The notes beneath the pieces are model-generated. The model worked only from the letters and a program-made list of their open reading frames with translations. It was not told where the DNA came from and made no database searches. Position numbers and translations under genes: made by a program. Shown piece by piece: positions 1,735 through 32,567 of a stretch of 33,016 nucleotides of DNA (positions within the stretch are counted from its first letter, which is position 1; each line of letters starts with the position of its first letter). The DNA is taken from assembly GCA_964611445.1 (NCBI GenBank), contig CAZSYZ010000004.1, positions 1 through 33,016 of the forward strand. Reading direction: 5' to 3'. Source of the stretch: an uncultured archaeon (GTDB lineage: Archaea > Aenigmatarchaeota > Aenigmatarchaeia > QMZP01 > JAFGSV01).

Positions 1735-3629
1735 CCGCCGAAAAGGCTTCTGAAAAAGTCGAGTATGGCCATTATTATCGCCTCGATGCCATCGGAGACC
1801 TCTTCCTTCAGCGTCTGGGTCCTGTACACTTCTACATTACCTGACCATCCGTCCTTGTATATGCCCTTGCTGTTCAGGAGCGACACCATGACGCTTTTCG
1901 TGCCCTCTGTCTCCGAAGTGAACTCGAATCCCACTGTGCTTTCGGATTCCTTCCCCACGGTCACGCTCTTGGTCTCGGTGTTCCCTTCGAACTGGAATGT
2001 GACGGACCCCGTCGTCTCCTCCCCCGTGTTGAACACGGTGACGTTCAGGAGGCCGTATGTTCCCGCCTCGATAGATTTCGTCATCTTTATCTCGGTTATC
2101 TTCAGCTTCCTGTCGCTGATGACGGTTATAGTCTCGCTCCTGAGGTCGCCGCTGCTTGCGAAGACGCTCAGGTCGTATTCGCCGGGCGACTCCGGTGCCG
2201 TGAACGTGAAGCTGGCTTCGCCGCTTTCCCCGTGTTTGAGGCTCAGGTCACGCTCCTCTATCTCATCCCCGAAAACCGCGAATACCCTTAGGTCCAGTTC
2301 TTTGAACCCGGCATTCCTCAGCCCGGTGGTGACGTCGATCTGCTGGCCGGGAATAACAATCTTCTGGCTCGATAAGGCCATGTCCACCGCGTCTCCGATG
2401 TCCGAGGTTATCGAGACGGACGCCTTGGCAGTCCCGCCGCCCCCCGCCGCGGTCACTGGGCAGGTATACTTGATCCCGCGCCTCACATGGGGCGTTTCCC
2501 CGAACCAGAAGAACCTCGCGCTGTCGCAGAAGGACACTGCCTGCTTTGTCTTCTCGATGCCGATGAGGCTGCTTCCCCCATCGTCCACGCAGCTGGCGAT
2601 GCGCAGGTTGGTCGCTACGCATCCCTCTGCTTCCATGTCCGCTATGATCATGACGCTCTTCCCGCCGACCACGGATTCGGGAACGGCTTCAAGGACGGTC
2701 GTGATTCTGGGACTTTCCCTGTACTCTACAATCTCCAGCCTCGTTTCTTCCTTTTCCCATCCTATCGATACGTCCCTGCTCTTCACCTCGGTGTGCTCGG
2801 TGAAATTCGAGTCGGGAAGCTTTGCGAACGTGACGTGCGTCGCGTCCACGGGGGATTCGGCCCACGTGGGGTCGAAGCTGTGCGTCTTCCCCAGAAGCCT
2901 TGCCTCCACCCATGCGTGCGGGCCGAACGATTCGCCCCCTTCCTGCTTGCCTCCGAGGTAGGCGTAGCCCGCGACGTACCAGGCGTCGTAGTCGAGCGTC
3001 CTCAGCATGGAAAGCAGCAGGTTGGAGAACTCGTCGCAGGTTCCCCTGCCTTCATCGAAGACCCACGCCGCCGGGAACGCCTCCTTCTCGCATGAAAGGT
3101 CGTAATCCACGTATTCGTTGACCCAGTTGCTCAGCAGCAGCATGCCCAGGATGCTCTTCTCGGACCCGCCCGCGTTGTACGCGGCCTCCATTATGCCCTG
3201 AGAAGGATGGATGACGGAAGTAACGGGGAAGTCCCTCACGTCGCCGCTGGACTTGGACTCGACCTCGACAACCGTCTCGACGAGGTAGTCTATCTCGCTG
3301 TCGAGCCTCGGCCTTCCCCAGTGCAGGACTATCTGCCTGTTCCCGTAGCCGTCGTCGTCGAAATCATAATCGTCAGGCCCGATGACCTTGCTCACGGTCA
3401 CGCTCTGCCTGCCGTTCTCCTGCGGTATGTAGAGCCTGAGCGAAAGCTCTTGGGCCGTGGCATGCGGTGATCCCGAGTTCAGCGTTATGTGGCCCGACTG
3501 CATCACCTCAGCCTTCATGTAGGTTACGTTCTCGGGATCGCTTATGACCTGCGCGGAACAGGTGACAGATATAAGCGCGAGTGCCGAAAAAACGACAATC
3601 GTCAACGATGCCAGAGGACGTCCATTCAT
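1731..3629 (-). CDS. Secreted transglutaminase-like (Cys-His-Asp) protein with C-terminal Ig-like repeats and a hydrophobic C-terminus
   Basis: N-terminal signal-like MNGRPLASLTIVVFSALALISVTCSAQ. Transglutaminase core GRGTCDEFSNLLLSML..YVAGY..GPHAWVEARL..SFDPTW. The C-terminal half is beta-rich, repetitive and CARDB-like, ending in a hydrophobic tail. Confidence 0.8.
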   Translation of the reverse strand: MNGRPLASLTIVVFSALALISVTCSAQVISDPENVTYMKAEVMQSGHITLNSGSPHATAQELSLRLYIPQENGRQSVTVSKVIGPDDYDFDDDGYGNRQIVLHWGRPRLDSEIDYLVETVVEVESKSSGDVRDFPVTSVIHPSQGIMEAAYNAGGSEKSILGMLLLSNWVNEYVDYDLSCEKEAFPAAWVFDEGRGTCDEFSNLLLSMLRTLDYDAWYVAGYAYLGGKQEGGESFGPHAWVEARLLGKTHSFDPTWAESPVDATHVTFAKLPDSNFTEHTEVKSRDVSIGWEKEETRLEIVEYRESPRITTVLEAVPESVVGGKSVMIIADMEAEGCVATNLRIASCVDDGGSSLIGIEKTKQAVSFCDSARFFWFGETPHVRRGIKYTCPVTAAGGGGTAKASVSITSDIGDAVDMALSSQKIVIPGQQIDVTTGLRNAGFKELDLRVFAVFGDEIEERDLSLKHGESGEASFTFTAPESPGEYDLSVFASSGDLRSETITVISDRKLKITEIKMTKSIEAGTYGLLNVTVFNTGEETTGSVTFQFEGNTETKSVTVGKESESTVGFEFTSETEGTKSVMVSLLNSKGIYKDGWSGNVEVYRTQTLKEEVSDGIEAIIMAILDFFRSLFGG

Positions 3630-4132: not shown

Positions 4133-5080
4133 ATGTCTATGCAGGTTTGGACCGAGAAGTACAGGCCGGAAAAGCTCAGCGAAATCGTGAACCAGAAGCA
4201 CGTCGTCGACAGGCTCAAGGCATGGGTGAAGGAAGGCAGCGTGCCGAACATGCTTTTCGCCGGTCCCGCGGGCACGGGTAAGACGACCGCGGCGCTCTGC
4301 CTTGCCAGGGAGCTGTTCGGGGAGCACTGGAGGGAGAACTTCCAGGAGACCAACGCGAGCGACGAGAGAGGGATAGACGTCGTCAGGGGAAGGATAAAGA
4401 GCTTCGCCATGACGAAGCCCCTGGGGAGCGAGTTCAAGATTATTTTCCTCGACGAGTCCGACTCGCTCACGCCGGAGGCGCAGCAGGCGCTCAGGAGGAC
4501 CATGGAGAAATACTCCGAAGTCTGCCGGTTTATTCTCAGTTGTAACTATTCCAGCAGAATCATCGAGCCCCTCCAGTCCAGATGTTCGGTATTCAGGTTC
4601 CAGCGCCTCGGGGAGGGCGACGTAAGGAAGTACGCTGGCCGCATCGCGGAGAAGGAGAAGATGAGGATGACCGAGGACGCTTACAAAGCCGTGTTCGAGG
4701 TGAGCGAGGGAGACCTGAGAAAGGCCACGAACATACTCCAGGCGTGCTCGACCCTGGAGAAGATAGACAGGGACGGCGTTTACGGCATGGTCTCGAAGGT
4801 CAAGCCCGAGGACATCGAAAAGATGGTCGAGAGCGCGCTCGCCGGGAAATTCGGCGAGGCAAGGAAGGAGCTTTACGCGCTGACGATAGAGAGGGCGCTC
4901 TCGGCGGAGGACATAATCAGGGCCGTCCACGGCCACATATTCCGGATGGAAATGGACGAGAGGAAGAGGCTTTCGCTGGTCGAGATACTGGGGGAATACG
5001 AGTTCAGGCTCAACCAGGGCGCGACGCCGGAAGTGCAGCTGGAGGCCATGCTGGCCCAGTTCATGAAAGCGGGCTCCTGA
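4133..5080 (+). CDS. rfcS: Replication factor C small subunit (clamp loader)
   Basis: WTEKYRPEKLSEIVNQ box, Walker A FAGPAGTGKTT, Walker B IIFLDESDSLT, SRC motif QSRCSVFRF. Confidence 0.95.
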   Translation: MSMQVWTEKYRPEKLSEIVNQKHVVDRLKAWVKEGSVPNMLFAGPAGTGKTTAALCLARELFGEHWRENFQETNASDERGIDVVRGRIKSFAMTKPLGSEFKIIFLDESDSLTPEAQQALRRTMEKYSEVCRFILSCNYSSRIIEPLQSRCSVFRFQRLGEGDVRKYAGRIAEKEKMRMTEDAYKAVFEVSEGDLRKATNILQACSTLEKIDRDGVYGMVSKVKPEDIEKMVESALAGKFGEARKELYALTIERALSAEDIIRAVHGHIFRMEMDERKRLSLVEILGEYEFRLNQGATPEVQLEAMLAQFMKAGS

Positions 5081-5088
5081 TAATTCTT

Positions 5089-6231
5089 ATGATAATGAAA
5101 GAGAAGCCGGAATGGGCGGAACTGGCGACATTCGTGCCGAACAAGAAGCTCCCGGTCTACAACTGGTTCTACTACAAGGAGGGATTCAGCCGCGACCTCG
5201 TCTTCAGGCTGATTGAAAAGTTCAAGCTTGAGAAGGGTGACACGGTCCTCGACCCCTTCTGCGGCGCGGGCACCACACTGCTGGCATGCAGGCAGAAGGG
5301 ATTGGAGTCTGCCGGTTTCGACGTCCAGTCCTCCGCGGTCTTTGCAGCCACGGTCAAGACGAGGGATTACGACCTGAATGCTTTGGACGATGCCGGAAAG
5401 GAGCTGCTTAAGGCGAGGTTCGAGAAGCCGGACTGGGGCACGACAAGTGCATTCGTCAGGCGCGCCTTCAACGGCCACACCCTGGACGACGTGCTCTTCT
5501 TCAGGGACAGGATAATGCAGGTACGCGACAACGCCGTGCGAGACTTCCTGATGCTGGCCCTCATCAACGTCACCATGAAGTGCAGCTACGCATGGAAGGA
5601 CGGCGCCGTCATCAAAATCAGGAAGCATCCGGTCCCGCCTCTGAGGAAGCTCCTGAAGAGGCAGCTAAGATACATGCTCAGGGACGTCAAAGGCTTCAGA
5701 TGCACGGAAGCCGGATGCAGGGTCGGCTTCGGTGACGCGAGGAAGATGAAGCTTCCCGACTCCTCCGTGGACGCCGTCATAACTTCACCGCCTTACCTCA
5801 ACAAGATAGAATACGCGAAAATCTATTCCATAGAGGACGAGCTTTTCTTCTCAGGCATGGGGCTGACGCCGCTGCGCTCGCACATAGGCATGGACCCGGA
5901 GAAGGCGCTTGCAGAAAAAAGCAAACTGGAAGACATAACGGATGTAAGCGGTTTCAACCCCCAGGCAACGGCCTACTTCAGCGACATGCATGAGGTCATA
6001 AAGGAGCTCCGCCGCGTCTGCAGGGACGGCGCGAAGCTCGGTATCGTCGTGGGCAACGGATGCTTCCCCGACGGCGTCGTAGATTCGGACGTTATACTCA
6101 GCAGGATGGCGGAGCATGCGGGATTCAAGGCCAGTGAATTGCTTGTGCTCAACAAGCGCTGGTGCACCAGGAACCGCGTGGAGAAGGTCGGAATCACGAG
6201 GGAGAGCCTGCTGTTGTGGGAAACAGCTTAA
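5089..6231 (+). CDS. SAM-dependent N6-adenine/N4-cytosine-type methyltransferase, motif I before motif IV; no adjacent recognisable endonuclease
   Basis: ATG at 5089 (MIMKEKPEW) lies just after the rfcS stop. The part of track ORF 4582-6231 upstream of it overlaps rfcS out of frame. Motif I is GDTVLDPFCGAGTTLLAC near the N-terminus. Motif IV is DAVITSPPYLNKIEY about 170 aa later, so the target-recognition region lies between them. Confidence 0.8.
   Translation: MIMKEKPEWAELATFVPNKKLPVYNWFYYKEGFSRDLVFRLIEKFKLEKGDTVLDPFCGAGTTLLACRQKGLESAGFDVQSSAVFAATVKTRDYDLNALDDAGKELLKARFEKPDWGTTSAFVRRAFNGHTLDDVLFFRDRIMQVRDNAVRDFLMLALINVTMKCSYAWKDGAVIKIRKHPVPPLRKLLKRQLRYMLRDVKGFRCTEAGCRVGFGDARKMKLPDSSVDAVITSPPYLNKIEYAKIYSIEDELFFSGMGLTPLRSHIGMDPEKALAEKSKLEDITDVSGFNPQATAYFSDMHEVIKELRRVCRDGAKLGIVVGNGCFPDGVVDSDVILSRMAEHAGFKASELLVLNKRWCTRNRVEKVGITRESLLLWETA
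6169..6197 (+). repeat. Direct repeat core, copy A (inside the live methyltransferase tail)
   Basis: AGGAACCGCGTGGAGAAGGTCGGAATCAC is identical to 7315-7343 by manual alignment. Weaker co-linear similarity extends over about 6148-6231. Confidence 0.9.
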
Positions 6232-6310
6232 TTTGCCCTAATAATCGGAAAAATCGAGTATTACTCGGAAAAAACGATATATATTTAAAGCGTTATTCCT
6301 ATTACTAGTC

Positions 6311-6922
6311 ATGATTGTAGAAAAAGTCCTAGGTTCGAAATCAAAAATATCCATACTCAGAATATTCCACGGTCATCCAAAAAAAGAGTTTTGCCTGGAG
6401 GATATGAGGAAGATTCTAAAACGTTCAACCGGAACGATCCATCCGCCACTTTCCGAACTATCCGATTCGGGAATCCTCAATGCGAGGCGTATAGGCCGCA
6501 CGACTTTGTACAAATTGAACGAAGACCATCCTTTCGTGATTGCTTTCAGAAATATATTCAGGACAGAAAACGACTTCATGAGAAAAGCCGCAAAGGATTT
6601 TGTCAAAAAAATGCCCAAGGAAGGTATAATTTCGGTGATACTCTTCGGTTCTGTCGCTAGAGACGAGTCCGTGGCCGGAAGCGATGTAGACCTGCTGGTG
6701 ATATATTCCAAAAAACGAAAGAATGTTGAGGATAGTGTGAGCAGAATAGCGGAGGATTATTTGAAGAATGGTATACACATTTCTCCTGTATTTTACTCGC
6801 GTACGGAAATTGTTAACATGGAAAGAAAATACAACAGCTTTTTGATAAGGGTTCAGGATGAAGGGAATGTTCTTTATGGGATTCCGATAAGGAGCATTTT
6901 GCATGGCAAGAAACGTGAATAA
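6311..6922 (+). CDS. Winged-helix + minimal nucleotidyltransferase (MNT) domain protein, antitoxin-type partner of HEPN
   Basis: N-terminal wHTH-like region (SILRIFHGHPKKEFCLEDMRKIL..GILNARRIGRTTLYKL). Pol-beta type NTase signature ILFGSVARDESVAGSDVDLLVIY. Overlaps the downstream HEPN gene by 20 nt. Confidence 0.85.
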   Translation: MIVEKVLGSKSKISILRIFHGHPKKEFCLEDMRKILKRSTGTIHPPLSELSDSGILNARRIGRTTLYKLNEDHPFVIAFRNIFRTENDFMRKAAKDFVKKMPKEGIISVILFGSVARDESVAGSDVDLLVIYSKKRKNVEDSVSRIAEDYLKNGIHISPVFYSRTEIVNMERKYNSFLIRVQDEGNVLYGIPIRSILHGKKRE

Positions 6923-7289
6923 AGTCGAAGCTGGAAATTACCTGAACAAGGCCTGTGAATTTCTTGATGAAGCGAGAGACGCGATGCTCAAGTCACGCTT
7001 CACAGCTGCCGCCTTCAACTCAATACAGGCGATAATCAACGCGAACGACGCCTTGACGATAGCTGTCAGCGGCATAAGGGCATCAAAGGATCACAGGGAA
7101 GCTGTCAGGACGCACACGGAGACCGTCAGTGTTATGGGAGACAGTTCGGGTAAACAGATTCTCGTAAAGGCATTGAATCTCAGGTCAGAAATAGGTTATT
7201 CAGGAAGGCCCGCCTCTAAAGCGCAAGCTGACGCGCTTCTGAAGGACGCTGTCAGGTTCATTGAGTGGGTCAAAAGATACGCCGAATAG
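6903..7289 (+). CDS. HEPN domain protein (toxin-type partner of MNT)
   Basis: All-helical 128 aa protein with Rx4H motif RASKDH. It is translationally coupled to the NTase gene, the classic MNT-HEPN pair layout. Confidence 0.8.
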   Translation: MARNVNKVEAGNYLNKACEFLDEARDAMLKSRFTAAAFNSIQAIINANDALTIAVSGIRASKDHREAVRTHTETVSVMGDSSGKQILVKALNLRSEIGYSGRPASKAQADALLKDAVRFIEWVKRYAE

Positions 7290-7293
7290 TCCC

Positions 7294-7377
7294 TTCATAC
7301 AAGCCAGATGTACGAGGAACCGCGTGGAGAAGGTCGGAATCACTAGGTAGAGACTCCTCATCTGGGGGAAGTTGTAA
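7294..7377 (+). pseudogene. Displaced, decaying copy of the methyltransferase 3' end
   Basis: Reads ..RCTRNRVEKVGITR*RLLIWGKL* against the live tail ..WCTRNRVEKVGITRESLLLWETA*. TAG at 7348-7350 replaces GAG at 6202-6204. Contains the 29 nt identical core at 7315-7343. Confidence 0.75.
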
Positions 7378-7439: not shown

Positions 7440-8081
7440 ATGAGGACATTCAAGGACATCTCATTCGAGTGGAAGGACTACAAATTTGACCTGACGATAT
7501 CTGAAGATAGATTCGCACGTGTTTCAGGATCGTTTTTGGGATACGAAGATGGGACAATAGCCAAAAGTGCTGCGGCCATGGCTTTGAATGCCGTGGTTAA
7601 TAACCGACGCGGTTCTCCCGAAATAAATAGCGCGACATTTGAAAAAATAATGAAAGAAACCGGCTCTAGCAGGGCTGCTATTCTGGATGCCCATGGAGAC
7701 ACTTTCGAGAAAAAATGGTATTACAGTGACAAAAGGACGGAAGGTCCGGAAGACCGGATGTATGGTGACTGGAAATATAAAATTGATAAAAGCGAGGTTA
7801 CATTCAACGGTGAAAAGATATCTATTTGCCAATTCAAGGAGATTCCTGGCGGGTTCATCTTTCCTGCAAAAGAGGGGATTATGGAGATTCATCCCCTTGA
7901 TTACTGGATAGACAAACAAGAAGATATGGGTTATGGAGCATTGATATTTCATTCGTGCAATCCGGATGGGCACGAACCCGTAGTGAAGGGCACGCCTATT
8001 TTTTACGTGCATGGCGATATCGGACTGCTTGGAAAGTACAAAACAAAGATACTATCCCCTGTTGGAATCGATTTAAAGTGA
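7440..8081 (+). CDS. Hypothetical protein (213 aa)
   Basis: Clean ORF with a TATA-like box (GGTTTAAAAAAC) upstream. AT-richer than the backbone, no recognisable motif. Its stop abuts the isf stop on the other strand. Confidence 0.55.
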   Translation: MRTFKDISFEWKDYKFDLTISEDRFARVSGSFLGYEDGTIAKSAAAMALNAVVNNRRGSPEINSATFEKIMKETGSSRAAILDAHGDTFEKKWYYSDKRTEGPEDRMYGDWKYKIDKSEVTFNGEKISICQFKEIPGGFIFPAKEGIMEIHPLDYWIDKQEDMGYGALIFHSCNPDGHEPVVKGTPIFYVHGDIGLLGKYKTKILSPVGIDLK

Positions 8082-8663
8082 TTACTTCTTCAGCACCTCG
8101 GCTATCTTCATGCCGAGGTTCTCGCACGTCTCTATGCCGATCTTGTCGTCTTCCGGCCTGCTTCCGCGCGGGACCCATGCTATGCCTCCGAAATGGGCGG
8201 TGTCCTTGTCGGCCACGGTTATCATCTCGTGCAGGTGCATCCAGTTCATTATCTGCTGGCATACGAGTTCCTGCCCGCCGTTCCTGCTCGCGCCGACCGC
8301 TATGGCCCCGCCTACCGCCTTGCTGAGCATCCTGCCGTTCCTTCTGAGCGGGAAAGTCCTCTCGAAGAAATCCTTCAGCCTTCCGCTGACGAGCCCGAAA
8401 TAAACGGGGCTTGCCACTATCAGCGCGTCGGCGCCGGCCATCTTCCCGTATATTGCCTGCATGTCATCCTTCTGGCTGCATTCGAACCTCGTCTTGCAGA
8501 GGTCGCATGCGGTGCAGGGCTTTATGTCCTTGTCCCAGAGCGTGACCGCTTCCGTTTCAATTCCTTCCTTTTCGACAGCATCTAATGCCTTCCTGAGGAA
8601 GAACAGCGTCGTGCTTTCCTTCCTGTGCGAGCCGCATATTCCTAACACTTTCATGGCAACCAT
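8082..8663 (-). CDS. isf: Iron-sulfur flavoprotein / NADPH-dependent FMN reductase family
   Basis: Flavodoxin-like N-terminus MKVLGICGSHRK and compact cysteine cluster CTACDLCKTRFEC (Cx2Cx2Cx5C), typical of archaeal Isf. The start could instead be the second ATG at 8654. Confidence 0.85.
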   Translation of the reverse strand: MVAMKVLGICGSHRKESTTLFFLRKALDAVEKEGIETEAVTLWDKDIKPCTACDLCKTRFECSQKDDMQAIYGKMAGADALIVASPVYFGLVSGRLKDFFERTFPLRRNGRMLSKAVGGAIAVGASRNGGQELVCQQIMNWMHLHEMITVADKDTAHFGGIAWVPRGSRPEDDKIGIETCENLGMKIAEVLKK

Positions 8664-8681: not shown

Positions 8682-8800
8682 TTTTCAGAACCGCGCGGAA
8701 GCGTACACCCTTTCATTGACGCTTTTGCGCTTATCTGCGCACCCGCGTCAGCGTACTTTCCGCGAACGCTTTTGCATGTTTACTTATGCAAAAGGGTTCA
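8682..8800 (-). other. tRNA intron 2 (119 nt, non-canonical position 59/60 in the T-loop)
   Basis: The T-stem is followed by a 3 nt bulge (AA|U), then a 4 bp helix UUCG/UGAA (one GU), then a 3 nt bulge (AA|U), then outer helix GAACC/GGUUC. The interior has further hairpins (UUUUGCAU..AUGCAAAA, GCGC-AGAUAA-GCGC, CGCGGAA..UUCCGCG). The exact boundary is ambiguous by 1-3 nt because of sequence redundancy. Confidence 0.65.
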
Positions 8801-8822
8801 TTCGAACCCTCAACCTGCCGGT

Positions 8823-8864
8823 ATCTTCCCACGCTTTTACTCAAGCTTTTTCTAAAAGCTTGGT
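8823..8864 (-). other. tRNA intron 1 (42 nt, canonical position 37/38)
   Basis: The anticodon stem is followed by a 3 nt bulge (AU|A), then a 4 bp helix CUUC/GAAG, then a 3 nt bulge (GG|A), then outer helix CCA/UGG. The intron also contains hairpin AGCUUUU-AGA-AAAAGCU. Confidence 0.75.
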
Positions 8865-8925
8865 CCGAAGCCGGCCGCAATATCCAGGTTATGCTACGGG
8901 CCCACATGATAAAATAAGCGAATTG

Positions 8926-9647: not shown

Positions 9648-9712
9648 TCAAGGATACACCCTGCTTATGGTCCGCGGGAATGTTACTCAGTCCGCTGTTC
9701 GGGTGTCCGTCT
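9648..9712 (-). pseudogene. Displaced, decaying copy of the asnS 3' end
   Basis: The minus strand reads D*VTFPRTISRVYP* against the live tail DCIAFPRTISRVYP*. In-frame TGA at 9689-9687 replaces TGC. Contains the 31 nt identical core 9650-9680. It lies 3 nt from the stop of the convergent 9456-9644 ORF. Confidence 0.75.
9650..9680. repeat. Direct repeat core, copy B (asnS tail remnant)
   Basis: AAGGATACACCCTGCTTATGGTCCGCGGGAA is identical to 10779-10809 by manual alignment. Confidence 0.9.
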
Positions 9713-9735: not shown

Positions 9736-9924
9736 TCACTTCTTTTCAAGTATGTTGCGCCTTTTCTCTACTGCCGCAGCAAGGGCCTCTATCTCCTTCT
9801 CGTAGTATTCGGCGAGGCCTATGTCGCCTGATTCCTTCGCGGTTTCAAGCTTCTTCCTGTGTATTTCTATCTGCTTTTTCAGGGATTCAATCCCTTTCAG
9901 CAGCCTTTTCTTTCTTTTCGGCAT
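9736..9924 (-). CDS. Small coiled-coil protein (62 aa)
   Basis: MPKRKKRLLKGIESLKKQIEIHRKKLE.. is Lys/Glu-rich with heptad character. Overlaps the 3' end of the upstream NTase gene by 38 nt in another frame. Confidence 0.4.
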   Translation of the reverse strand: MPKRKKRLLKGIESLKKQIEIHRKKLETAKESGDIGLAEYYEKEIEALAAAVEKRRNILEKK

Positions 9925-10693
9925 CTTTCAGCAGCTCCTCAAACAGGCCAATAGCCTTGGCGATGGTCTGCCCGTCGAATTCACACCTCTTCGGTTTTCT
10001 TCCATCCCTTACCCCCCTGTAGCGGTCTATGAGCTTAATAGAATCGCCCTTTGTTATCCCTTTCTTTTTCAGCGACTCTTCCAGTATCTTATGGGAGTAG
10101 TTTCTCTTTTCTGTGATGCATTTTATGAGAAGCATCTCCTTTATGCGCATTAAGATGGGATATACGAGGTCGCCTTGGTTTCCACCGGTTTCATACAGGC
10201 TTCTTATGACATTGAGGGACGAACGCGCGAGCCCCAGCCTCTCCCTGAACCCCCTTCCATTCTTCAGCGGCCTGAGTTCGGAAATGAAGCTTTCATTGAA
10301 CAGTATCCTGGATCCTTCTATGGTGTCTCTCATTATGATGTCATTTTCTGCCGCATTCATCAGCTCCTGCCTCTCCATCACCCTTATGTCATAATTCATG
10401 TCTTTCAGCTCCTTTGGAATTTTCATGCTTTTTGCATGTGCGTCCGTGACGACTATTACGTCTATGTCCGACCCCTCAGTCTGCTCGTTTCTCGCATAAG
10501 AACCGTACAGCAGGATGCTTACGACATGTTTCATGTTTTCCGCCAGCGCGAGCGGAAGGTCCTTCTCCGGTTCTGCCGGTCTTGACAGGAGTCTTACCTC
10601 TGCCTGTCCGCCAATCCACGAGGAAGGGACATACACGCCGCCTGAATTCCCGTACTTTTTTACAGTTTTCGTCACGACTTCTGGTGAAATCAT
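9887..10693 (-). CDS. AbrB/SpoVT-like DNA-binding domain fused to a minimal nucleotidyltransferase domain and a C-terminal helical (HEPN-like?) domain
   Basis: N-terminus VKKYGNSGGVYVPSSWIG is AbrB/MazE-like. NTase signature LLYGSYARNEQTEGSDIDVIVV. The helical C-terminal half has only an Rx3H (RNYSH), so HEPN assignment is tentative. Confidence 0.8.
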   Translation of the reverse strand: MISPEVVTKTVKKYGNSGGVYVPSSWIGGQAEVRLLSRPAEPEKDLPLALAENMKHVVSILLYGSYARNEQTEGSDIDVIVVTDAHAKSMKIPKELKDMNYDIRVMERQELMNAAENDIIMRDTIEGSRILFNESFISELRPLKNGRGFRERLGLARSSLNVIRSLYETGGNQGDLVYPILMRIKEMLLIKCITEKRNYSHKILEESLKKKGITKGDSIKLIDRYRGVRDGRKPKRCEFDGQTIAKAIGLFEELLKDAEKKEKAAERD

Positions 10694-10776
10694 GTATATA
10701 CATAGTATATACTCATTTATAAGCTTATCCCAAGGACACTAAAGTAGGATTCAGAAAAAGGTGTCAAGTCGGAAGC

Positions 10777-12060
10777 CTAAGGATACACCCTGCTTATGGT
10801 CCGCGGGAACGCTATGCAGTCCCTTATGTGGTCCACGCTGCATATCCACTGGGTAAGCCTCTCGACGCCGAGCCCGAAGCCCGCGTGCGGGACCGAACCG
10901 AACTTCCTGACGTCCATGTACCAGCCGTAGTTCGCGGGGTCGGCGCCTTCCCTCTTCAGGTTCGCCAGAATCTTCTTCGGGTCAACTTCCCTTGCGGAGC
11001 CTCCTATCAGTTCGCCGCCGGACTCGCCCGGAGCTATGAGGTCCGCGTTGAGGACGGTCTTTTTGTCTTTCGGGTTCTCCAGCATGTAGAAGGGCCTCGC
11101 CTCCTTGGGCCAGTTGGTTATGAAGAACGGCTTCCTGAAGTGCTCCGAGAGCGCCCTGAGCTGCAGGTCCGTCACGTCGTCGCCCCATTTCATCCTGACG
11201 TCCTTCTTCCTCATCATTTCGGTCAGCTCCCTGTACGTTATCCTTCTGAACGGAGGCTTGACACCCGAAAGCATCTTCACGTCCGCGCCCAGCTCCTGCA
11301 GCTCCTTTTTGTGCTTCTTCAGACACGCCTGCACTACGTGCGATACCAGCTCCTCCTGGAGCTTCAGGGAGTCCTCGTGGTCAATCCATGCGGCCTCGGC
11401 CTCCGCGTGCCAGTACTCCGCGAGGTGGTGCCTCGTCCTGCTCTTCTCGGACCTGAAGCTCGGCGCTATGCAGTATATGTTCTCGAGGGACGCTATGAGA
11501 GCTTCGGCGTGCAGCTGCCACGACTGCGTCAGGTAGGCCTTCTCTCCGAAGTACCTCATCTCGAACAGCGTGGAGCCTCCCTCACAGGCCATCTTGGTTA
11601 TCGAGGGCGACTGTATCTCGAAGAAGCCACGGGACCTGAAGAACTCATGTATGGCGCCGAGAATGGTCGACCTGACCTTGAATATCTTCAGCAGTTTCTG
11701 GCTCCTCACCCACAGGTGCCTGTTGTCCAGCAGCAGTTCGGGGCTCTGCTGCTCCTTTATGGGGAAGTCTTCTGCAAACCCGACGACCCTGAAATCGGTA
11801 ACATGAACCTCGTAGCCTCCGGGGGCCCGCTCGTCCTTCCTCACATTGCCCGTGAGTTCCACTGATGACTCGATCAGCGCCTTCTGCGCGTCCTTGAAGC
11901 CTTTCACGCCCTCCTTCACCACGCACTGGACTATGCCCGTGGAATCCCTGAGAACCACGAAGGAAATGTCCTTCCCGGACCTGGTCCTGTATATCCATCC
12001 CTTCAGGAGCACTTCCCTCCCGGCCTTCTTTCCGATATCGGCTATGACAGTCCTTTCCAT
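10777..12060 (-). CDS. asnS: Asparaginyl-tRNA synthetase (class IIb)
   Basis: N-terminal OB fold. LLLDNRHLWVRS. Motif 2 FRSEKSRTRHHLAEYWHAEAE. YGWYMDVRKFGSVPHAGFGLGVERL motif 3 region. About 427 aa. AspRS cannot be fully excluded without alignment. Confidence 0.8.
   Translation of the reverse strand: MERTVIADIGKKAGREVLLKGWIYRTRSGKDISFVVLRDSTGIVQCVVKEGVKGFKDAQKALIESSVELTGNVRKDERAPGGYEVHVTDFRVVGFAEDFPIKEQQSPELLLDNRHLWVRSQKLLKIFKVRSTILGAIHEFFRSRGFFEIQSPSITKMACEGGSTLFEMRYFGEKAYLTQSWQLHAEALIASLENIYCIAPSFRSEKSRTRHHLAEYWHAEAEAAWIDHEDSLKLQEELVSHVVQACLKKHKKELQELGADVKMLSGVKPPFRRITYRELTEMMRKKDVRMKWGDDVTDLQLRALSEHFRKPFFITNWPKEARPFYMLENPKDKKTVLNADLIAPGESGGELIGGSAREVDPKKILANLKREGADPANYGWYMDVRKFGSVPHAGFGLGVERLTQWICSVDHIRDCIAFPRTISRVYP
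10779..10809. repeat. Direct repeat core, copy A (live asnS tail)
   Basis: Identical to 9650-9680. Decayed similarity continues for roughly 30 more nt into the gene. Confidence 0.9.
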
Positions 12061-20519: not shown

Positions 20520-20664
20520 GAGAATTGGTGAGGAATGAAATAAATATCAGATTGCATCGTTTGCCCCAAACGTTACCAGGGGGCAATAACCTGAACAGCC
20601 GACAGACCGAACTCATATAAGCTGGTCTTGCTGTTTTTGAGCAAAACGTAATGATAAGAGATAC

Positions 20665-20728
20665 TAACAATCATAACAAAAGTAACAAAACATTAATAAA
20701 TATAACAATCATAACAAAAGTAACAAAA
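20665..20728 (+). repeat. Two perfect 26 nt direct repeats (20665-20690 and 20703-20728), each built of three TAACAA motifs at 9 nt spacing
   Basis: TAACAATCATAACAAAAGTAACAAAA occurs twice, 38 nt apart start to start, in an AT-rich intergenic region. Confidence 0.9.
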
Positions 20729-20735
20729 TGATATC

Positions 20736-20867
20736 ATGTCCTACAAAACATGCTATGTCTGCGGGAGAAAGGTCCATCCTGGCACAGGAACCTATTATTA
20801 TGGCCGGTTGATTCATAGGACATGCCGGGGGATAGCGAAGATTACGAGGTTTAAATTGTACGGGTAG
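20736..20867 (+). CDS. Possible small zinc-ribbon-like protein (43 aa)
   Basis: Below the track size cut-off. MSYKTCYVCGRKVHPGTGTYYYGRLIHRTCRGIAKITRFKLYG has CxxC and HxxC. Sits between the direct repeats and the ATPase gene. Confidence 0.3.
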   Translation: MSYKTCYVCGRKVHPGTGTYYYGRLIHRTCRGIAKITRFKLYG

Positions 20868-20876
20868 GTAAATAAT

Positions 20877-22019
20877 ATGGCCAATCCTTTTTCCACTCAG
20901 TTCCCATCTAAACCAGAAAATTTTGCAGATAGAAAGGAGAAAATAGAGAAATTCAAAAGATCTTTGAAAAACTCGCTGGAATCCGGGCTGCCAGAAAACA
21001 TAGCAATATTGGGAGACTGGGGGATTGGAAAGACATCCATGCTTAACAAATTCAAGGACATCGTTTTATCCTCCGAAGAATCAAAATTCAACATATTCTG
21101 CACCAAAATCTGTCTTTCACCAAGTAATTGTAAAGACGAAGAAACATTCTCAAAACAGGTAATCGAAGATATCGTGAAAAACTCGGAAACTTTGAAAAAA
21201 TCCACGATGAGAGGCATCAGAGAGAATTTGTCGAAAATAAAATCAGTCCAAATATCAGCGATAGGGGGTATCACATTTAGAGACGGCGTTAAGAGCAAAC
21301 GGCTTCTCTCGTTCTTAACCGAGTTTTGGGAAAAGAATCTGGCCCCGAACAAAATAGACTTGGCCGTGATTATGGTTGATGACCTTCACTATATGTTAGG
21401 CAACTACAGAGAGGGCCTTTACGACATAAGATCCATATTTCAGGAATTGGCCGAGAGACGCTGCAATTATATGTTGATAGTGACATCTCCTCTTGAGCTG
21501 TTTGAATTAAAAGAAACGGCTGAACCATTCAAAAGATTCTTTGAGATCATGACGCTCGGGCCTTTTGATTTGAAAGGAACCAAAGAGGCCGCCTTGAAAC
21601 CCATATCGAATGAGAAAATCGATCTAAAGATTGCCGATAATGTCATTTCAGAAATCCATAAGTTAACAGAAGGTCATCCTTACTTCGTGGTCTTTTTCAT
21701 GAAGGATATCATGGATACGGGAATGACCAGGAATTTTGATAGGGGACACTTCAATAACATACTAAACAGCATCATGAAGCATTTGGGCGGCATAAAATTC
21801 AGATCGGATTTTAATTCTGCTAGCGAGGAAGAGAAAAAGCTATTAATCAAATTTGCAAATAGCAAAAAAGAAGTTTTGAGGGCTGTTGACATGTCAAGGA
21901 CAAAGCCGCCAAATGTTATGCTCAGCCGACTGATAAAGAAAAACCTGTTGAACAAAGTAGAAAGAGGTAAATTCAAATTATACCATCCACTTTTCAAGAA
22001 ATACTTGAAATCTCTATAA
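20877..22019 (+). CDS. AAA+ ATPase of the archaeal ATPase (Arch_ATPase / Orc1-Cdc6-like) type with C-terminal winged-helix-like region
   Basis: FADRKEKIEKF leader. Walker A ILGDWGIGKTSML. Walker B AVIMVDDLH. C-terminal ..LIKKNLLNKVERGKFKLYHPLFKKYL. Confidence 0.8.
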   Translation: MANPFSTQFPSKPENFADRKEKIEKFKRSLKNSLESGLPENIAILGDWGIGKTSMLNKFKDIVLSSEESKFNIFCTKICLSPSNCKDEETFSKQVIEDIVKNSETLKKSTMRGIRENLSKIKSVQISAIGGITFRDGVKSKRLLSFLTEFWEKNLAPNKIDLAVIMVDDLHYMLGNYREGLYDIRSIFQELAERRCNYMLIVTSPLELFELKETAEPFKRFFEIMTLGPFDLKGTKEAALKPISNEKIDLKIADNVISEIHKLTEGHPYFVVFFMKDIMDTGMTRNFDRGHFNNILNSIMKHLGGIKFRSDFNSASEEEKKLLIKFANSKKEVLRAVDMSRTKPPNVMLSRLIKKNLLNKVERGKFKLYHPLFKKYLKSL

Positions 22020-22081
22020 AATTCAAGATTATCAGAAGCATATATAAGTTTATATATATAAATATGTTAATAGGTGGTTCC

Positions 22082-22360
22082 ATGAAGGTACAGACTATCC
22101 ACATGCCAAGGCTTGACACGGTATTGATGGTAGAAGACACTATAAAGAAAATGGACCATTATCCGACAAAAAATCAGCTGTGGAGGGCATTGCCGAAGAT
22201 GGTCATGTGGCAGACCTTCAGCATAATCCTTGAATACCTTGAAAAGAGTCACAAGATAATGGTTGACAAAAAAGGCGAGATAGTATGGATATTCGCGGAC
22301 AATCCTAAGGCAAGGTCCCTTCTTGAAAATTCCGTCCCTTACAGGAAGGTGAAGGGATGA
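22082..22360 (+). CDS. Small hypothetical protein, possible winged-helix fold
   Basis: ATG at 22082 (MKVQTIHMPRLD..) within track ORF 22064-22360. Follows the ATPase by about 60 nt. Confidence 0.45.
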   Translation: MKVQTIHMPRLDTVLMVEDTIKKMDHYPTKNQLWRALPKMVMWQTFSIILEYLEKSHKIMVDKKGEIVWIFADNPKARSLLENSVPYRKVKG

Positions 22361-22368
22361 CAAATTTA

Positions 22369-22602
22369 TCAATAAAATTCCTCTTCCGGTTTTTTTGTCT
22401 GTCTTATGATATTTCGTATGTGGAAAGGAACTAGTCTTGGACAATGACTTACGAGTGTGGTCAGAACGCTCTTATCTTCGTTCGTTTTTTTAAATTTCAT
22501 GTGGGGACCTCTACTTTTCTGAAGAACAAATCCATTTCTTATTAGTATTCTTTTTACTTTATCTCGCGGTAATGGGTGTATTTTCCCTGACAGAATTATC
22601 AC
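22369..22602 (-). CDS. hicA: HicA-like mRNA interferase toxin
   Basis: KVKRILIRNGFVLQKSRGPHMKF.. matches the HicA pattern (..GF.....GSH..F). Lies downstream of, and overlapping, hicB. Confidence 0.65.
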   Translation of the reverse strand: MIILSGKIHPLPRDKVKRILIRNGFVLQKSRGPHMKFKKTNEDKSVLTTLVSHCPRLVPFHIRNIIRQTKKPEEEFY

Positions 22603-22951
22603 CTGGGTAGATTGGTAATTTCATAGGTATTTCCTTCAATCCTATTTCCATTTTAACAATAGTTTTCACTGAGGGCTTTTCGGTATCAGAATCTTTCATA
22701 TAGTCGTCAATCATTGCCTTGAGATTTTCAACGGCATCTTCTTCCGTCTTACCCTGTGCCGAAACATCAATGAGCGGAGTGTGAGCTACGAACCACCCAC
22801 CTTCTTTTAGTGTGATTATAGGGAAGTTAACCCTAGTCACATCTTTCAGGCTTTCTCTAATATTCTCTCTCACTTGGGGAGGCAAAAGCTTCATATTAGG
22901 ATTTTTTTCAATTTCATCCAAAATCCTTTTCAAAGGATTGTCTTTTTTCAT
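22559..22951 (-). CDS. hicB: HicB-like antitoxin (UPF0150 fold)
   Basis: GGWFVAHTPLIDVSAQGKTEEDAVENLKAMIDDY is the HicB N-domain signature. Confidence 0.7.
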   Translation of the reverse strand: MKKDNPLKRILDEIEKNPNMKLLPPQVRENIRESLKDVTRVNFPIITLKEGGWFVAHTPLIDVSAQGKTEEDAVENLKAMIDDYMKDSDTEKPSVKTIVKMEIGLKEIPMKLPIYPGDNSVRENTPITAR

Positions 22952-23087
22952 GATACCACCACCAGGAAATTGGAATTGGTGAGAAGTTTTATAAGCCTTT
23001 TCCCAGTTAGCCCCATATTAGATTATTGAATAATCGAATATTTAAGATTTTTAAAGATTTACAGTAACGGATACTGGTGCGTTAGCG

Positions 23088-23417
23088 AGGAAGATATCAA
23101 AGGAATTCTCGGAAGAATTCGCAAGACTTCAGAAAAGGTCAGAGAAGGGGGATGGCGAAGCTGAATATTTGCTGGGACTGTTTGCGAAGGGAATAGCAAA
23201 GCTGGTAGAAGACCACGAGGCAGGGAAGAAGATAGAGAAGAGGCTTTGGCCGAGATATTACGAGCAGAAATAGGGAATAAACAACTTGTGGAGGCTTCGT
23301 CTGGACAGTTACTGGAGAATGATTTATACCATAATCGGAGAGAATGTGAGAATCGTGACAGTTATCCTCGAAGTCATTGACCATAAGGATTACGACAAAA
23401 GGTTCGGATACAAGTAA
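23088..23417 (+). pseudogene. relE: RelE/ParE-family toxin, inactivated (start codon lost, in-frame TAG)
   Basis: Frame reads (R)KISKEFSEEFARLQK..KIEKRLWPRYYEQK*GINNLWRLRLDSYWRMIYTIIGENVRIVTVILEVIDHKDYDKRFGYK*. AGG at 23088 sits where ATG is expected. TAG at 23271-23273 is in frame. Track ORF 23139-23384 (-) is its antisense shadow. Confidence 0.7.
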
Positions 23418-23547
23418 AGCCCATGAGCGAACGTTATATGAATGACGATTCCGGCGGTTGTACCCTCCTGCCGCTCATAAGGAGAAATACAGGCAGGGAA
23501 AATTAAAAAGGTTAAAAAACTAACCATCATCTATCATATGTGGTTAT

Positions 23548-23877
23548 GTGAAAATCGGCATAGAGAAAATCAAGGAAACGCTTTTCCCTTACAGTATAAT
23601 AGTGCTGGTCCCAGAAAACGACAATGACTATGTGAATCTTTCGGATACATGCTACAGGAAGAGGTTCATGTTCAAAGGAAGGTTCGACTCGCATAAGACC
23701 GACCTGGTATCAAATAGTGTTGTAGGAACTTCCGTGACACATGAAGATGGCACATACATAGCCGTCGCGAATCTCACAGGCAAATTAGGAATTCTGGACA
23801 GGTACTCTTTTACTGCAACTTCTGAAAAGTATGCGAATTACATGAAATCTTTTATACCGAAATCACATGACCCTTGA
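23548..23877 (+). CDS. Hypothetical protein (109 aa, GTG start)
   Basis: ORF only, no motif recognised. Its 3' end overlaps the convergent tRNA-binding protein gene by 15 nt. Confidence 0.4.
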   Translation: MKIGIEKIKETLFPYSIIVLVPENDNDYVNLSDTCYRKRFMFKGRFDSHKTDLVSNSVVGTSVTHEDGTYIAVANLTGKLGILDRYSFTATSEKYANYMKSFIPKSHDP

Positions 23878-24336: not shown

Positions 24337-24795
24337 ATGACATATACAGAAATAAAGGAAATGAATGGGAAAAAATACTATTACAGAGTCAGAAGCGTCA
24401 GAAAGGGTAAAAAATTCAAAAAGGAAAGGATTTACCTGGGGGTAAATTTATCCGGCCAAAAATTATCCAAAAAAGAAAATCAGGCGGATAAAAAATTATT
24501 GGAAGATAAGGTAAACGAAGGTTTAAAGGTGATAAAACCCCAAATAATTAGAATCTTAAGGAAAAATAAGATAAAAAGGGCCGGGATATTCGGTTCTTAT
24601 GCCAGAGGAGAGCAGAAAAAAAACAGTGATATTGACATCTTGATACAACCCACGAAAGATACAGGGTTTGGTTTTGCTGGTATTGAGATTGAACTGGAAA
24701 AAACGCTGAAGAAAAAGGTCGATTTAGTAAGCTATAACGGCATAAGCCCGTATTTGAAAGATCAGATTCTAAGCCAGGAAGTGAGAATAATATGA
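24337..24795 (+). CDS. mntA: MntA-type minimal nucleotidyltransferase antitoxin
   Basis: GIFGSYARGEQKKNSDIDILIQ signature. 4 nt overlap with the hepT start. Confidence 0.85.
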   Translation: MTYTEIKEMNGKKYYYRVRSVRKGKKFKKERIYLGVNLSGQKLSKKENQADKKLLEDKVNEGLKVIKPQIIRILRKNKIKRAGIFGSYARGEQKKNSDIDILIQPTKDTGFGFAGIEIELEKTLKKKVDLVSYNGISPYLKDQILSQEVRII

Positions 24796-25142
24796 ATGAA
24801 AAAAGGGATTTCATTTTTATCAAGCATATTCTGGAAAGCGTAAATGCAATAAATGATTTTTCCAAGGGAATCGACAAGGAAGAATTGACCTCTAGCAGAT
24901 TGAAGCAAAGTGCAATAGTCAGGGAAATAGAGATAATAGGAGAAGCTGCCAAGAATATTTCCAAGAAAACCAAAAACAGATACAGTAATATTGAATGGAA
25001 GGAAATTGCCGGAACCAGAGATAAAATGATTCATCATTATTTCGGGGTTGATTTGGATATCGTTTTAGCCATAATAAAAAAAGATATTCCAGAACTGAAA
25101 AAAGAAATATTGAAAATTGAAAAGGACTTTGAAAATAAATGA
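24792..25142 (+). CDS. hepT: HepT (DUF86) HEPN-domain toxin
   Basis: ILESV..I...., EIIGEAAKNIS and the Rx4HxY motif RDKMIHHY. Confidence 0.9.
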   Translation: MNEKRDFIFIKHILESVNAINDFSKGIDKEELTSSRLKQSAIVREIEIIGEAAKNISKKTKNRYSNIEWKEIAGTRDKMIHHYFGVDLDIVLAIIKKDIPELKKEILKIEKDFENK

Positions 25143-25929: not shown

Positions 25930-26018
25930 TGAAAAATTAAACCGGATTTCTTATTCCTGAACGGGCATGGAAGTTCCGAGTGCTTCTGCGGCTACGAAAA
26001 CGAGCCTGTAATATGCAT
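25930..26018 (+). pseudogene. Isolated ~89 nt fragment homologous to the His-box region of the caspase-like gene at 32708-32797
   Basis: Encodes ..KPDFLFLNGHGSSECFCGYENEPVIC.. with no start, a 1 nt indel and flanking stops. About 84 of 90 positions match the right-hand copy by manual alignment. Confidence 0.75.
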
Positions 26019-26070
26019 ACTATCTTTTGCCAAATGATACTGAGAAGACTTCCGGGACATTATGGACAGT

Positions 26071-27348: not shown

Positions 27349-27520
27349 GATTATTAATTGCGCCGCTTGTTTATAAATGTTCGCATTATAATTGCGTAAA
27401 ATTTAATTATTTTACGTAATATAGAATTAATATTGATGATGGATACATGACAGCGTTCTGATGATCCTTTCAGTCCCCCTTTCCAGCCCCACCTGACCTT
27501 TTCTTGACCAGCTTTCTGAA

Positions 27521-27531
27521 CCCCCCCCCCC
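27521..27531 (+). repeat. C11 homopolymer in the divergent ATPase intergenic region
   Basis: Eleven consecutive C residues, 52 nt upstream of the 27584 start. Confidence 0.95.
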
Positions 27532-27583
27532 GATGTGCGATGGCGATAATTATTTAAGTATATTTAATTATAATAGCATTATT

Positions 27584-28879: not shown

Positions 28880-29109
28880 CGCCAGGGAGGACGGCGGCCG
28901 CAAGGCCCCGATTTTCTTAAAAAGTGCTTACGAAGACATCATTTATGATACCTTTCTCTGCAGGAAACAGGAAATGGGTGCTTCTTGGAGCTTTTGGGAG
29001 AGCCGGACCGTCTAAATATGAAAATAATACGTTTCGCTATCCTTATCAAAATTGATAAGCATATGCAAACGAAATATTGTTTTATAAAGGAGCCGCGCGA
29101 AATATTGTC

Positions 29110-30622: not shown

Positions 30623-30732
30623 GCGTAGCCTTGCAGGGGCCGGCTCCCTCCTTTCCAGCTTCTGAACGGGAAGCGGACACCGGACAGAAAGCCGGCCCAA
30701 AGAACTTTAACCTTCAATACAACCGTGTTCTC

Positions 30733-32001: not shown

Positions 32002-32116
32002 GAGGTTTCGGGTTTTCCGCGCGGAAGGCGGCGGTTTAATCAAAAAGTGAAGCATGGAACCGTTGATTCAGAACGCTGACTTTACATTTATATTGCGAGA
32101 TTGCCAATAACTTCTT

Positions 32117-32320
32117 ATGGTCGACACCGCTTACGACAAGCTGCGCGCCGCTTTCCTCAGGGCATTCGCTTCTGTTCCCGATTCCTTGAGAAGCGAAATA
32201 ATAGCGGTCGTCGACGGGAAGCCTTTCACATGGGAAAGCTCATACGTGGAAGTAAAGGGCGGCACGGAAAAATCCAAAAAAATACTGAACGAGCTTAAAA
32301 AACTTGAGATAATAAGTTAA
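32117..32320 (+). CDS. Small hypothetical protein (67 aa)
   Basis: TATA-like ACATTTATATTG about 30 nt upstream. The stop abuts the next ORF. Weak paralogy to the next ORF (S.P...I..G..FT....EV..G.E). Confidence 0.5.
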   Translation: MVDTAYDKLRAAFLRAFASVPDSLRSEIIAVVDGKPFTWESSYVEVKGGTEKSKKILNELKKLEIIS

Positions 32321-32329
32321 GTGGTTGTT

Positions 32330-32548: not shown

Positions 32549-32567
32549 TATCATAACCAGGCTTCTG

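Follow-up and report, generated by a model that had tools for sequence, protein, structure and literature searches.

A two-gene cassette encoding a winged-helix minimal nucleotidyltransferase (wHTH-MNT) and a HEPN protein lies at the 3′ end of a methyltransferase gene in a stretch of archaeal DNA of 33,016 nucleotides (nt) (contig CAZSYZ010000004.1 of assembly GCA_964611445.1, positions 1 to 33,016), referred to below, at its whole length, as the window. The cassette stands between two diverged copies of the end of that gene, and it was probably brought in by a single-crossover, Campbell-type homologous recombination of a unit that carried a foreign gene end along with it. Such a model is the best-supported account of the duplication, the chimeric live gene, the displaced end, the divergence and mosaicism of the copies, the variety of targets and the lack of recombinase genes. 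The insertion and the duplication, empty sites in relatives, a chimeric gene end, orthologue-like mosaic copies, purifying selection, a cassette without any recombinase gene and the recurrence of this footprint at other loci were all demonstrated. An earlier note on the same DNA had proposed that an element-borne tail recombined with the 3′ end of the gene; that much of its model is supported by the empty sites, the chimeric end, the orthologue-like copies, the mosaics and the presence of the structure in two assemblies. The features that carry the argument are listed here, L003 being the related locus in which the same cassette is found.

5089-6231, plus strand: the target gene, an N6_N4_Mtase methyltransferase of 380 amino acids (aa) (Pfam N6_N4_Mtase, 6.7e-15)
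6152..6222, plus strand: upstream 'live' tail copy with the exact core 6169-6197 (repeat search, self-BLAST)
6223..6310, plus strand: new gene end with its stop codon (ACA GCT TAA), then the cassette leader (leader comparison with L003)
6311-6922, plus strand: wHTH-MNT gene, 203 aa, predicted antitoxin and autoregulator (Pfam NTP_transf_2 4.4e-9, Polbeta 6.6e-9)
6903-7289, plus strand: HEPN gene, 128 aa, predicted toxin (Pfam HEPN 2.6e-5)
7290..7298, plus strand: right cassette junction TCCCTTCAT, of the same form as its L003 counterpart CCCCTTTCGTG (alignment)
7299..7377, plus strand: downstream 'displaced' tail copy with the core 7315-7343 and the old-type end GGGGGAAGTTGTAA (repeat search, self-BLAST)

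The repeat search of the window returned an ungapped match of 58 nt at 84% identity (6163-6220 versus 7309-7366), and gapped self-BLAST gave 69 nt at 82.6% (6152-6220 versus 7299-7366) with one 1-nt gap. Within it lies an exact 29-mer (6169-6197 = 7315-7343) that has no further match even at three mismatches and none by chance in 100 dinucleotide shuffles with three mismatches permitted. With 13 mismatches spread over 69 positions, 29 or more identical nt in a row would come about with P = 0.004, and the mismatches are therefore unevenly distributed. The tail repeat is thus confirmed as genuine and non-random, and the identical core of 29 nt is where the earlier note had placed it. The translations also read as claimed, ...RWCTRNRVEKVGITRESLLLWETA(stop) for the live tail and ...RCTRNRVEKVGITR(stop)RLLIWGKL(stop) downstream, with TAG at 7348-7350 replacing GAG at 6202-6204, and Pfam upholds the three gene calls. 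Some of the limits had to be redrawn. The tail does recur in the stretch 7294-7377, but alignable homology starts only at 7299 (CAAGC), about 10 nt past the HEPN stop codon rather than 5, and the last 9-10 nt of what had been taken for a copy of about 80 nt are non-homologous (live AACAGCTTAA, downstream GGAAGTTGTAA). Likewise, the decay ascribed to the old tail is only partial: the displaced copy holds the in-frame TAG at 7348-7350 and a 1-nt deletion that shifts the frame at its left edge, and most of the other differences are probably older than the insertion.

Between the tail copies, over 1.06 kb, there are only a leader, the wHTH-MNT gene and the HEPN gene, as had been stated. The insert is indeed AT-richer than its target, with a G+C content (GC) of 0.40-0.46 versus 0.55-0.59 in the methyltransferase gene, but the AT-rich tract resumes past the second copy, in an open reading frame (ORF) at 7440-8081. 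Overall, the window has a GC of about 0.55-0.60 and is interrupted by AT-rich islands. At the left boundary, a hairpin of 6 bp (6210-6227, GCTGTT..AACAGC) arises from the atypical codons at the new gene end and is followed by TTAATTT; it may be a terminator insulating the cassette promoter from methyltransferase transcription.

The methyltransferase has 2158 homologues, mostly in Aenigmatarchaeota (DPANN), the host lineage indicated by its matches, and 163 loci with relatives of the gene were fetched. Gene order in the clade of the window is transglutaminase (minus), RFC (plus), methyltransferase (plus), convergent SIS/OMPdc/RpiB and/or FMN reductase, tRNA, ORF70 and AspRS (minus). At L002, L004, L006, L011 and L014, the methyltransferase stop codon adjoins the convergent gene and the tail is single; empty sites had been predicted, and these cassette-free relatives do not carry both tail copies. 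The exact arrangement foreseen, with the methyltransferase directly followed by the ORF at 7440-8081, was not found; none of the 170 fetched loci contains a homologue of this ORF, which has no Pfam match either. Among 164 loci, a second tail occurs only in the window, L003, L016, L026 and L098. Others (L001, L005, L007, L009, L010 and L020) have other genes at the methyltransferase junction without tail duplication, and this 3′ junction is a hot spot of gene gain.

In L003 (methyltransferase 77% identical at the aa level), the same cassette (MNT 75% aa, HEPN 87.5% aa) is followed directly after the HEPN stop codon by a second tail copy. The downstream copies of the window and L003 have a common junction and common left-edge changes, including the 1-nt deletion, and the leaders are 90% identical over 61 nt. 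Between the two, synonymous divergence (dS) amounts to 1.0-1.26 in core genes and 0.69-0.78 in the cassette, but to 0.53 in the AT-rich chromosomal ORF70, a pattern that, like the tree, favours neither horizontal transfer nor vertical descent of the cassette. The L003 locus also bears on the suspicion that the assembler had linked tail variants of two strains in tandem, with the cassette between them, a suspicion invited by the metagenome-type contig and by differences between the copies that resemble strain- or orthologue-level variation. Such an artefact is barely credible: the same architecture and cassette-to-tail junction occur in an independent assembly from another sample (L003) at about 20-25% nucleotide divergence, between the junction at 7290-7305 and the live tail there is no identical k-mer long enough to lead an assembly graph astray, and analogous structures are found in many unrelated assemblies. 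With the same junction in two independent and diverged assemblies, the assembly chimera that the earlier note had itself raised is therefore excluded.

The two copies also differ in which of them looks native. The family consensus of the methyltransferase end is ...LLxWEK(stop), and the live genes of the carriers depart from it (WETA(stop) in the window, WEERV(stop) in L003), while the displaced copy ends in WEK(stop) in L003 and in a degraded version of the same in the window. Over the last 16 aligned nt, the displaced ends agree with the live ends of L001 or L090 at up to 13 of 16 positions, and the live ends of the carriers agree with any relative at only 6-9 of 16 (at most 9 of 16 for the window). 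Since the live end is atypical and the displaced end typical, the insert supplied the new end and stop codon and the displaced copy is the original end; the methyltransferase gene is now a chimera of the host body and a cassette-side end (WETA(stop)).

The nature of the differences between the copies points the same way. Where the two window copies are in frame, third codon positions account for 8 of 11 differences, and in the L003 pair, whose displaced copy is still an open frame, for 7 of 10. When seven repeat pairs are pooled, the share is 53/79 (67%; P = 9e-10 against one third), with 44 synonymous and 20 non-synonymous differences by codon. Genuine orthologues at comparable divergence have about 60% of their differences at third positions (a derived value), and neutral decay of one copy is expected to give near one third, or about 0.46 with the synonymous changes of the live copy added. 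Due to this third-position excess, the copies look like orthologous ends of different genomes and not like an in-situ duplicate that decays. A staggered break or template switching of the kind termed microhomology-mediated break-induced replication, copying about 70 nt of target whose downstream copy then decayed, is hence quite unlikely as the origin of the repeat. It would suit the variation in duplicated length between events (12-17, 32, 35, 38, 40, 44, 69-71 and 102 nt) and the inserts of 48-66 nt with perfect or near-perfect tail duplications in L016 and L026, which are hard to picture as circles. Apart from the third-position share, however, it has to contend with displaced copies that keep an open frame in several loci (L003, L026, L164, L144 and L098), with displaced or live copies that match other lineages better than their own partner, with an atypical end that is the live one and not the displaced one, and with the absence of terminal inverted repeats and of a transposase.

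Matches to other lineages are clearest outside the window. A 28-nt block of the L003 displaced tail agrees at 27/28 positions with the live tails of L005/L011, at 22/28 with its own live tail and at 21/28 with the displaced tail of the window; a 4-nt cluster is present in both L003 copies and not in the window or L001, and the near-identical block lies at positions 38-60 in L003 versus 17-45 in the window. Such mosaics have the pattern expected of reciprocal chimeras that a crossover between a resident and a foreign tail would leave, with later conversion or re-integration possible. In L098, the gene body is closest to L093/L092 (81% and 78% at the nucleotide level) and the displaced tail is 94% and 92% identical to the tails of L092/L093, while the live tail is of the L015/L016 type (85%) and leads into a hairpin spacer that agrees with the L016 spacer in all of its first 23 nt (23/23). 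From these tail types it follows that a foreign tail and insert have replaced the host tail, which stays downstream, and L098 is a cleaner parallel than the window's own pair. Taken as a test of Campbell-type insertion, reciprocal chimeras with a donor part traceable to another lineage are found in L003 and L098 and only in part in the window pair.

Very small inserts are also seen at this methyltransferase tail. In L016 (7068-7263), a perfect 71-nt duplication of the methyltransferase tail surrounds a 55-nt hairpin spacer; in L098 (1811-2076), two hairpin spacers with compensatory stem changes alternate with three tail copies; and in L026 (7115-7416), an 83-nt tandem unit (the last 35 nt of the gene and 48 nt) is present in at least three copies across a scaffold gap. 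They may represent a mini-element or a terminator module that travels with the gene tail. A similarity between the left junction of the window and the L016 spacer (AACAG..TTTGCCCT) is weak, possibly due to chance, and was not used.

The cassette itself is a two-gene operon. The MNT protein joins a winged-helix N-terminus to a minimal nucleotidyltransferase with the motif GSVARDES..DVDLLV (GSx(n)DxD), the HEPN protein has an Rx5H motif (HREAVRTH), and the two genes overlap by 20 nt. Overlapping genes for an MNT protein with GSx(n)DxD and a HEPN protein with Rx4-6H, established here by Pfam and motifs, are what membership in type VII requires, and on established knowledge of HEPN-MNT systems we take the pair to be a type VII toxin-antitoxin-like module. 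In later work on Shewanella and Aphanizomenon systems, MNT reportedly neutralises HEPN by AMPylation. The leader contains two operator-like palindromes of 14 nt, ATCGGAAAAATCGA (6244-6257) and CTCGGAAAAAACGA (6264-6277), with a TATA-like box downstream of them at about 6276-6290, and the operator motif is also present in the leaders of the homologous cassettes of L164 and L169; the predicted antitoxin MNT, being fused to a DNA-binding domain, would be an autoregulator. Between the window and L003, the ratio of non-synonymous to synonymous divergence (dN/dS) is 0.19 for MNT and 0.11 for HEPN, a sign that both genes are under purifying selection. The MNT family is rare (15 matches among 5.8 billion proteins). 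In L164, two toxin-antitoxin pairs (2552-3257 and 5929-7013; a 73-aa protein with a MazE-like one, and MNT with HEPN) have a common leader (53 nt, 91%, with operator palindromes and TATA box) and a common trailer (47 nt, 87%), which looks as if gene pairs had been exchanged inside a shared chassis.

The same footprint recurs, first of all in the window itself, at the AspRS gene, where it is absent from the earlier note.

10779..10822, minus strand: live 3′ tail of AspRS (gene 10777-12060, minus; synteny with L003, Pfam tRNA-synt_2)
9736..10776, minus strand: second cassette (Pfam NTP_transf_2 1.9e-11)
9650..9693, minus strand: displaced AspRS tail copy, reading ..D(stop)VTFPRTISRVYP, with the stop codon TGA instead of TAG (window self-comparison)

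This AspRS tail repeat (9650-9693 / 10779-10822) covers 44 nt at 91% identity, 31 nt of them exact. The second cassette (1.13 kb, AT-richer) has a leader (10694-10776) with a TATA box and two GTATATAC palindromes, and it encodes an AbrB-like and MNT protein of 268 aa (9887-10693) and a coiled-coil ORF of 62 aa (9736-9924). The AspRS site of L003 is empty, the stop codon of ORF70 being 15 nt from that of AspRS. Further instances come from other loci, as follows.

L144 (5827-7095): 102 nt of a methyltransferase gene head, 80%, frame-preserving, with wHTH-MNT and HEPN between the copies
L026: 38 nt of an H+-PPase gene tail, 92%, all 3 differences synonymous, with MNT and a partner gene between the copies
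L166: 40 nt, 88%, with a homologue of the window cassette between the copies
L168: 32 nt, 88%, with a homologue of the window cassette between the copies
L164: 62 nt of a gene tail, 81%, with a 3.1 kb toxin-antitoxin island between the copies
L144 (11462-13213): 64-70 nt of a LeuA/homocitrate synthase tail, 81%, frame-preserving, with an AbiE-like pair between the copies

The LeuA-tail copies of L144 differ by frame-preserving changes and a 2-codon indel. In L164, a 17-nt flanking match was judged to be due to chance, and it is the 62-nt repeat that brackets the 3.1 kb island. Flanking repeats of at least 40 bits were found at 5 of 13 independent MNT cassettes in the fetched DNA, versus 0.67% of 600 random segments of the same geometry.

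Recurrence also bears on a more classical origin, in which the cassette would be a remnant or satellite of an integrative element whose tyrosine or serine recombinase, encoded elsewhere or lost, joined an attP with the gene tail to attB across the 29-nt core. Insertion into the 3′-distal part of a protein-coding gene, with a fresh stop codon provided by the insert, is indeed documented for archaeal elements with an integrase or casposase (Krupovic et al. 2019, PMC6563490; She et al. 2002 as cited there), their crenarchaeal repeats measure 29-69 bp (PMC6563490), and both the repeat length and the central identity block found here would fit. Nevertheless, this origin is unlikely. Pfam scans of the cassette and of the ORFs tested across the 33 kb gave no integrase, transposase or recombinase domain; the identity block is displaced between L003 and the window, leaving no fixed identical core; like cassettes are bracketed by unrelated sequences (the AspRS tail, the H+-PPase tail, the methyltransferase head and a promoter region), which is unexpected for one site-specific enzyme; and three independent loci (the window/L003 site, L166 and L168) have their cassette edge 8-10 nt past the end of the HEPN gene, which random erosion of larger elements would not produce. 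As no integrase was found and the footprint occurs at unrelated gene ends, host homologous recombination is favoured, and in the initial proposal of a circular DNA with an att-like copy of the tail, the site-specific sense of 'att-like' has to be dropped and the circle kept as a conjecture.

The favoured Campbell-type model may be put in terms of its steps. The mobile unit would consist of the two-gene wHTH-MNT/HEPN cassette with about 70 nt of the methyltransferase 3′ end of a related genome, and the donor would most simply be a circular molecule. One crossover within the shared tail sequence, most likely by host recombination acting on the circular form, would yield the order host gene body, chimeric tail, new stop codon, cassette, displaced tail and old downstream DNA, so that the gene would be kept intact and the displaced tail left as a non-coding direct repeat. 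Further exchange between the two repeats, through gene conversion or through excision followed by re-integration, could take place and would explain the identity blocks and the mosaicism; toxin-antitoxin addiction would counter loss through deletion between the repeats. The circular intermediate, the action of host recombination and the inter-genome origin of the foreign tail are what we infer.

Several points weigh against this model. With a dS to L003 of 0.7-1.0, the repeat pair of the window is old, and host and donor parts are assigned less cleanly in it than in L098 or L003. No flanking repeats were found at the cassettes of window 24337-25142, L169 and L170. Neither the tail pattern nor the MNT protein has a match in the viral contig collection, and no free or plasmid- or virus-borne cassette with a methyltransferase tail was found. 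The model assumes that recombination via 30-100 nt of 80-90% identical DNA is feasible in uncultivated archaea, and it would leave the origin of the first junction between cassette and gene fragment unexplained. Finally, tree topology and dS fit both one ancestral insertion with conversions and two integrations; two integrations of related units are slightly favoured for the window and L003 over a single pre-split insertion with conversions, because the identity blocks and the donor-type block differ.

Other candidate explanations of the repeat were tried and rejected. The mismatch types between the copies (C/T, C/G, G/T, C/A, G/C and T/A) are not adenine-specific and no reverse transcriptase is among the Pfam results, which speaks against a diversity-generating retroelement. 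For an attC or hairpin recombination site, or an integron cassette, shuffled sequence folds just as well as the repeat region (z = 0.14), and the ORFs tested hold no IntI-like domain. A DNA transposon or insertion sequence was dismissed in view of the lack of terminal inverted repeats at either cassette and of a transposase, and of a 69-nt repeat that varies in length by event and is diverged in an orthologue-like manner. Rfam gave no family at gathering score in the window, hence no RNA gene in repeat or cassette. A tRNA as the true target was likewise set aside: ARAGORN found none, and the tRNA-like stretch beside the displaced tail of L003 is the conserved tRNA that usually lies beyond the FMN reductase gene. 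Most relatives have a conserved tRNA-like gene, apparently interrupted by an intron, in the interval from the FMN reductase gene to ORF70 (about 8788-8905, minus, in the window; 9216-9275 in L003); it is missed by ARAGORN and scores 26 bits in Rfam versus a gathering score of 29. L003 has lost its FMN reductase gene, hence its displaced tail adjoins the tRNA-like region.

The neighbours of the locus in the window are the following.

4133-5080, plus strand: RFC small subunit (Pfam)
7440-8081, plus strand: orphan ORF, 213 aa (no Pfam match)
8082-8663, minus strand: FMN reductase (Pfam)

The orphan ORF is placed in the AT-rich segment 7378-8081, with the displaced tail on one side and the FMN reductase gene on the other. 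In L001, L004 and L007 its position is taken by SIS-OMPdecase-RpiB genes, which are missing here. Further away, an AT-rich island at 20520-23800 (GC 0.35-0.43) starts with short tandem TAACAATCATAACAAAAG repeats (20665-20728) and codes for a KAP/AAA_16-type NTPase (20877-22019) and several ORFs without a Pfam match. A third MNT gene, paired with HepT (a HEPN RNase), occupies 24337-25142 in an AT-rich island (GC 0.33-0.36) between a gene with a tRNA-binding domain and the next ORF. A 90-nt repeat at 93% (25930-26018 / 32708-32797) encodes ..PDFLFLNGHGSS(E/D)CFCGYENEPVIC, its first copy resembling a stranded gene fragment, and encloses 6.8 kb with two AAA_14/DUF4143 ATPases, an AbiEi/AbiEii pair (29077-30622) and a PQQ-like beta-propeller gene; the region 25930-32797 may be a larger instance of the same footprint.

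Toxin-antitoxin modules, MNT-HEPN included, rank with the most mobile genes of archaea, and how chromosomal toxin-antitoxin cassettes move is an open question that this feature makes directly testable. The locus and its parallels offer a concrete and testable footprint, namely a minimal cassette between diverged copies of a host gene end, which implies entry by a single homologous crossover without a dedicated recombinase. If the mechanism were general, it would account for the 'naked' toxin-antitoxin islets of genomes, offer a bioinformatic signature by which insertions in metagenomes, and the lineages that donated them, could be recognised, imply that housekeeping genes of reduced genomes can be chimeras with foreign ends, and suggest why addictive modules survive as cargo between recombination-prone direct repeats. 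Tentatively, and with rather less assurance than for the insertion in the window, toxin-antitoxin and defence cassettes in DPANN and related archaea could form a class of integrase-free mobile units, each 'baited' with 30-100 nt from the end of a conserved host gene, entering by one host-mediated homologous crossover and replacing the end of a housekeeping gene by its own copy, with addiction opposing deletion between the repeats. Were such a class real, the integrity of the gene would be tied to the cassette, and displaced ends would be a searchable fossil record of cassette traffic and donor lineages.

How does this arrangement compare with known systems? In open-access texts, where absence is not proof, no description was found of minimal toxin-antitoxin cassettes between diverged host gene ends, nor any insertion mechanism for chromosomal MNT-HEPN or toxin-antitoxin cassettes outside plasmids, transposons and integrons, nor a published insertion footprint for HEPN-MNT modules, the mobility of which has been documented without a mechanism (Makarova et al. 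2009, PMC2701414). With type VII HEPN-MNT modules, the cassette has in common the overlapping two-gene operon, the GSx(n)DxD and Rx4-6H motifs, AT-richness, patchy distribution and purifying selection; it differs from them in the N-terminal winged helix of MNT, the palindromic operators of the leader and the rarity of the MNT family. Archaeal integrated elements likewise have target-derived direct repeats flanking the insert, a gene regenerated with the stop codon of the insert and empty sites in relatives, and the repeat found here lies within their crenarchaeal size range (PMC6563490). However, they are multi-gene elements of several kb and more, with an integrase or casposase and an identical core, whereas the present insert has about 1.06 kb, two genes, no recombinase and repeats diverged like orthologues.

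Integron gene cassettes are also small, promoter-poor or self-contained, often toxin-antitoxin modules, and set apart by repeats, but here no IntI, attI or attC-like palindrome was found and the repeats consist of parts of the adjoining host gene. Diversity-generating retroelements resemble the locus in having a near-copy of a gene 3′ end close downstream of the gene, and differ in that the mismatches here are not adenine-specific, no reverse transcriptase accompanies them and the copy has a stop codon and a frameshift. These retroelements are common in DPANN archaea. The topology is that of the Campbell-type insertions of laboratory suicide vectors, in which, as here, a homologous segment is duplicated on both sides, donor and recipient sequences form chimeras and host recombination is sufficient. 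Toxin-antitoxin islets have been proposed to spread by recombination at flanking core genes (PMC13617665), a process usually pictured as a double crossover in the flanking genes without duplication; in contrast, the footprint described here would reflect a single crossover via a diverged gene end of 30-100 nt, and it recurs.

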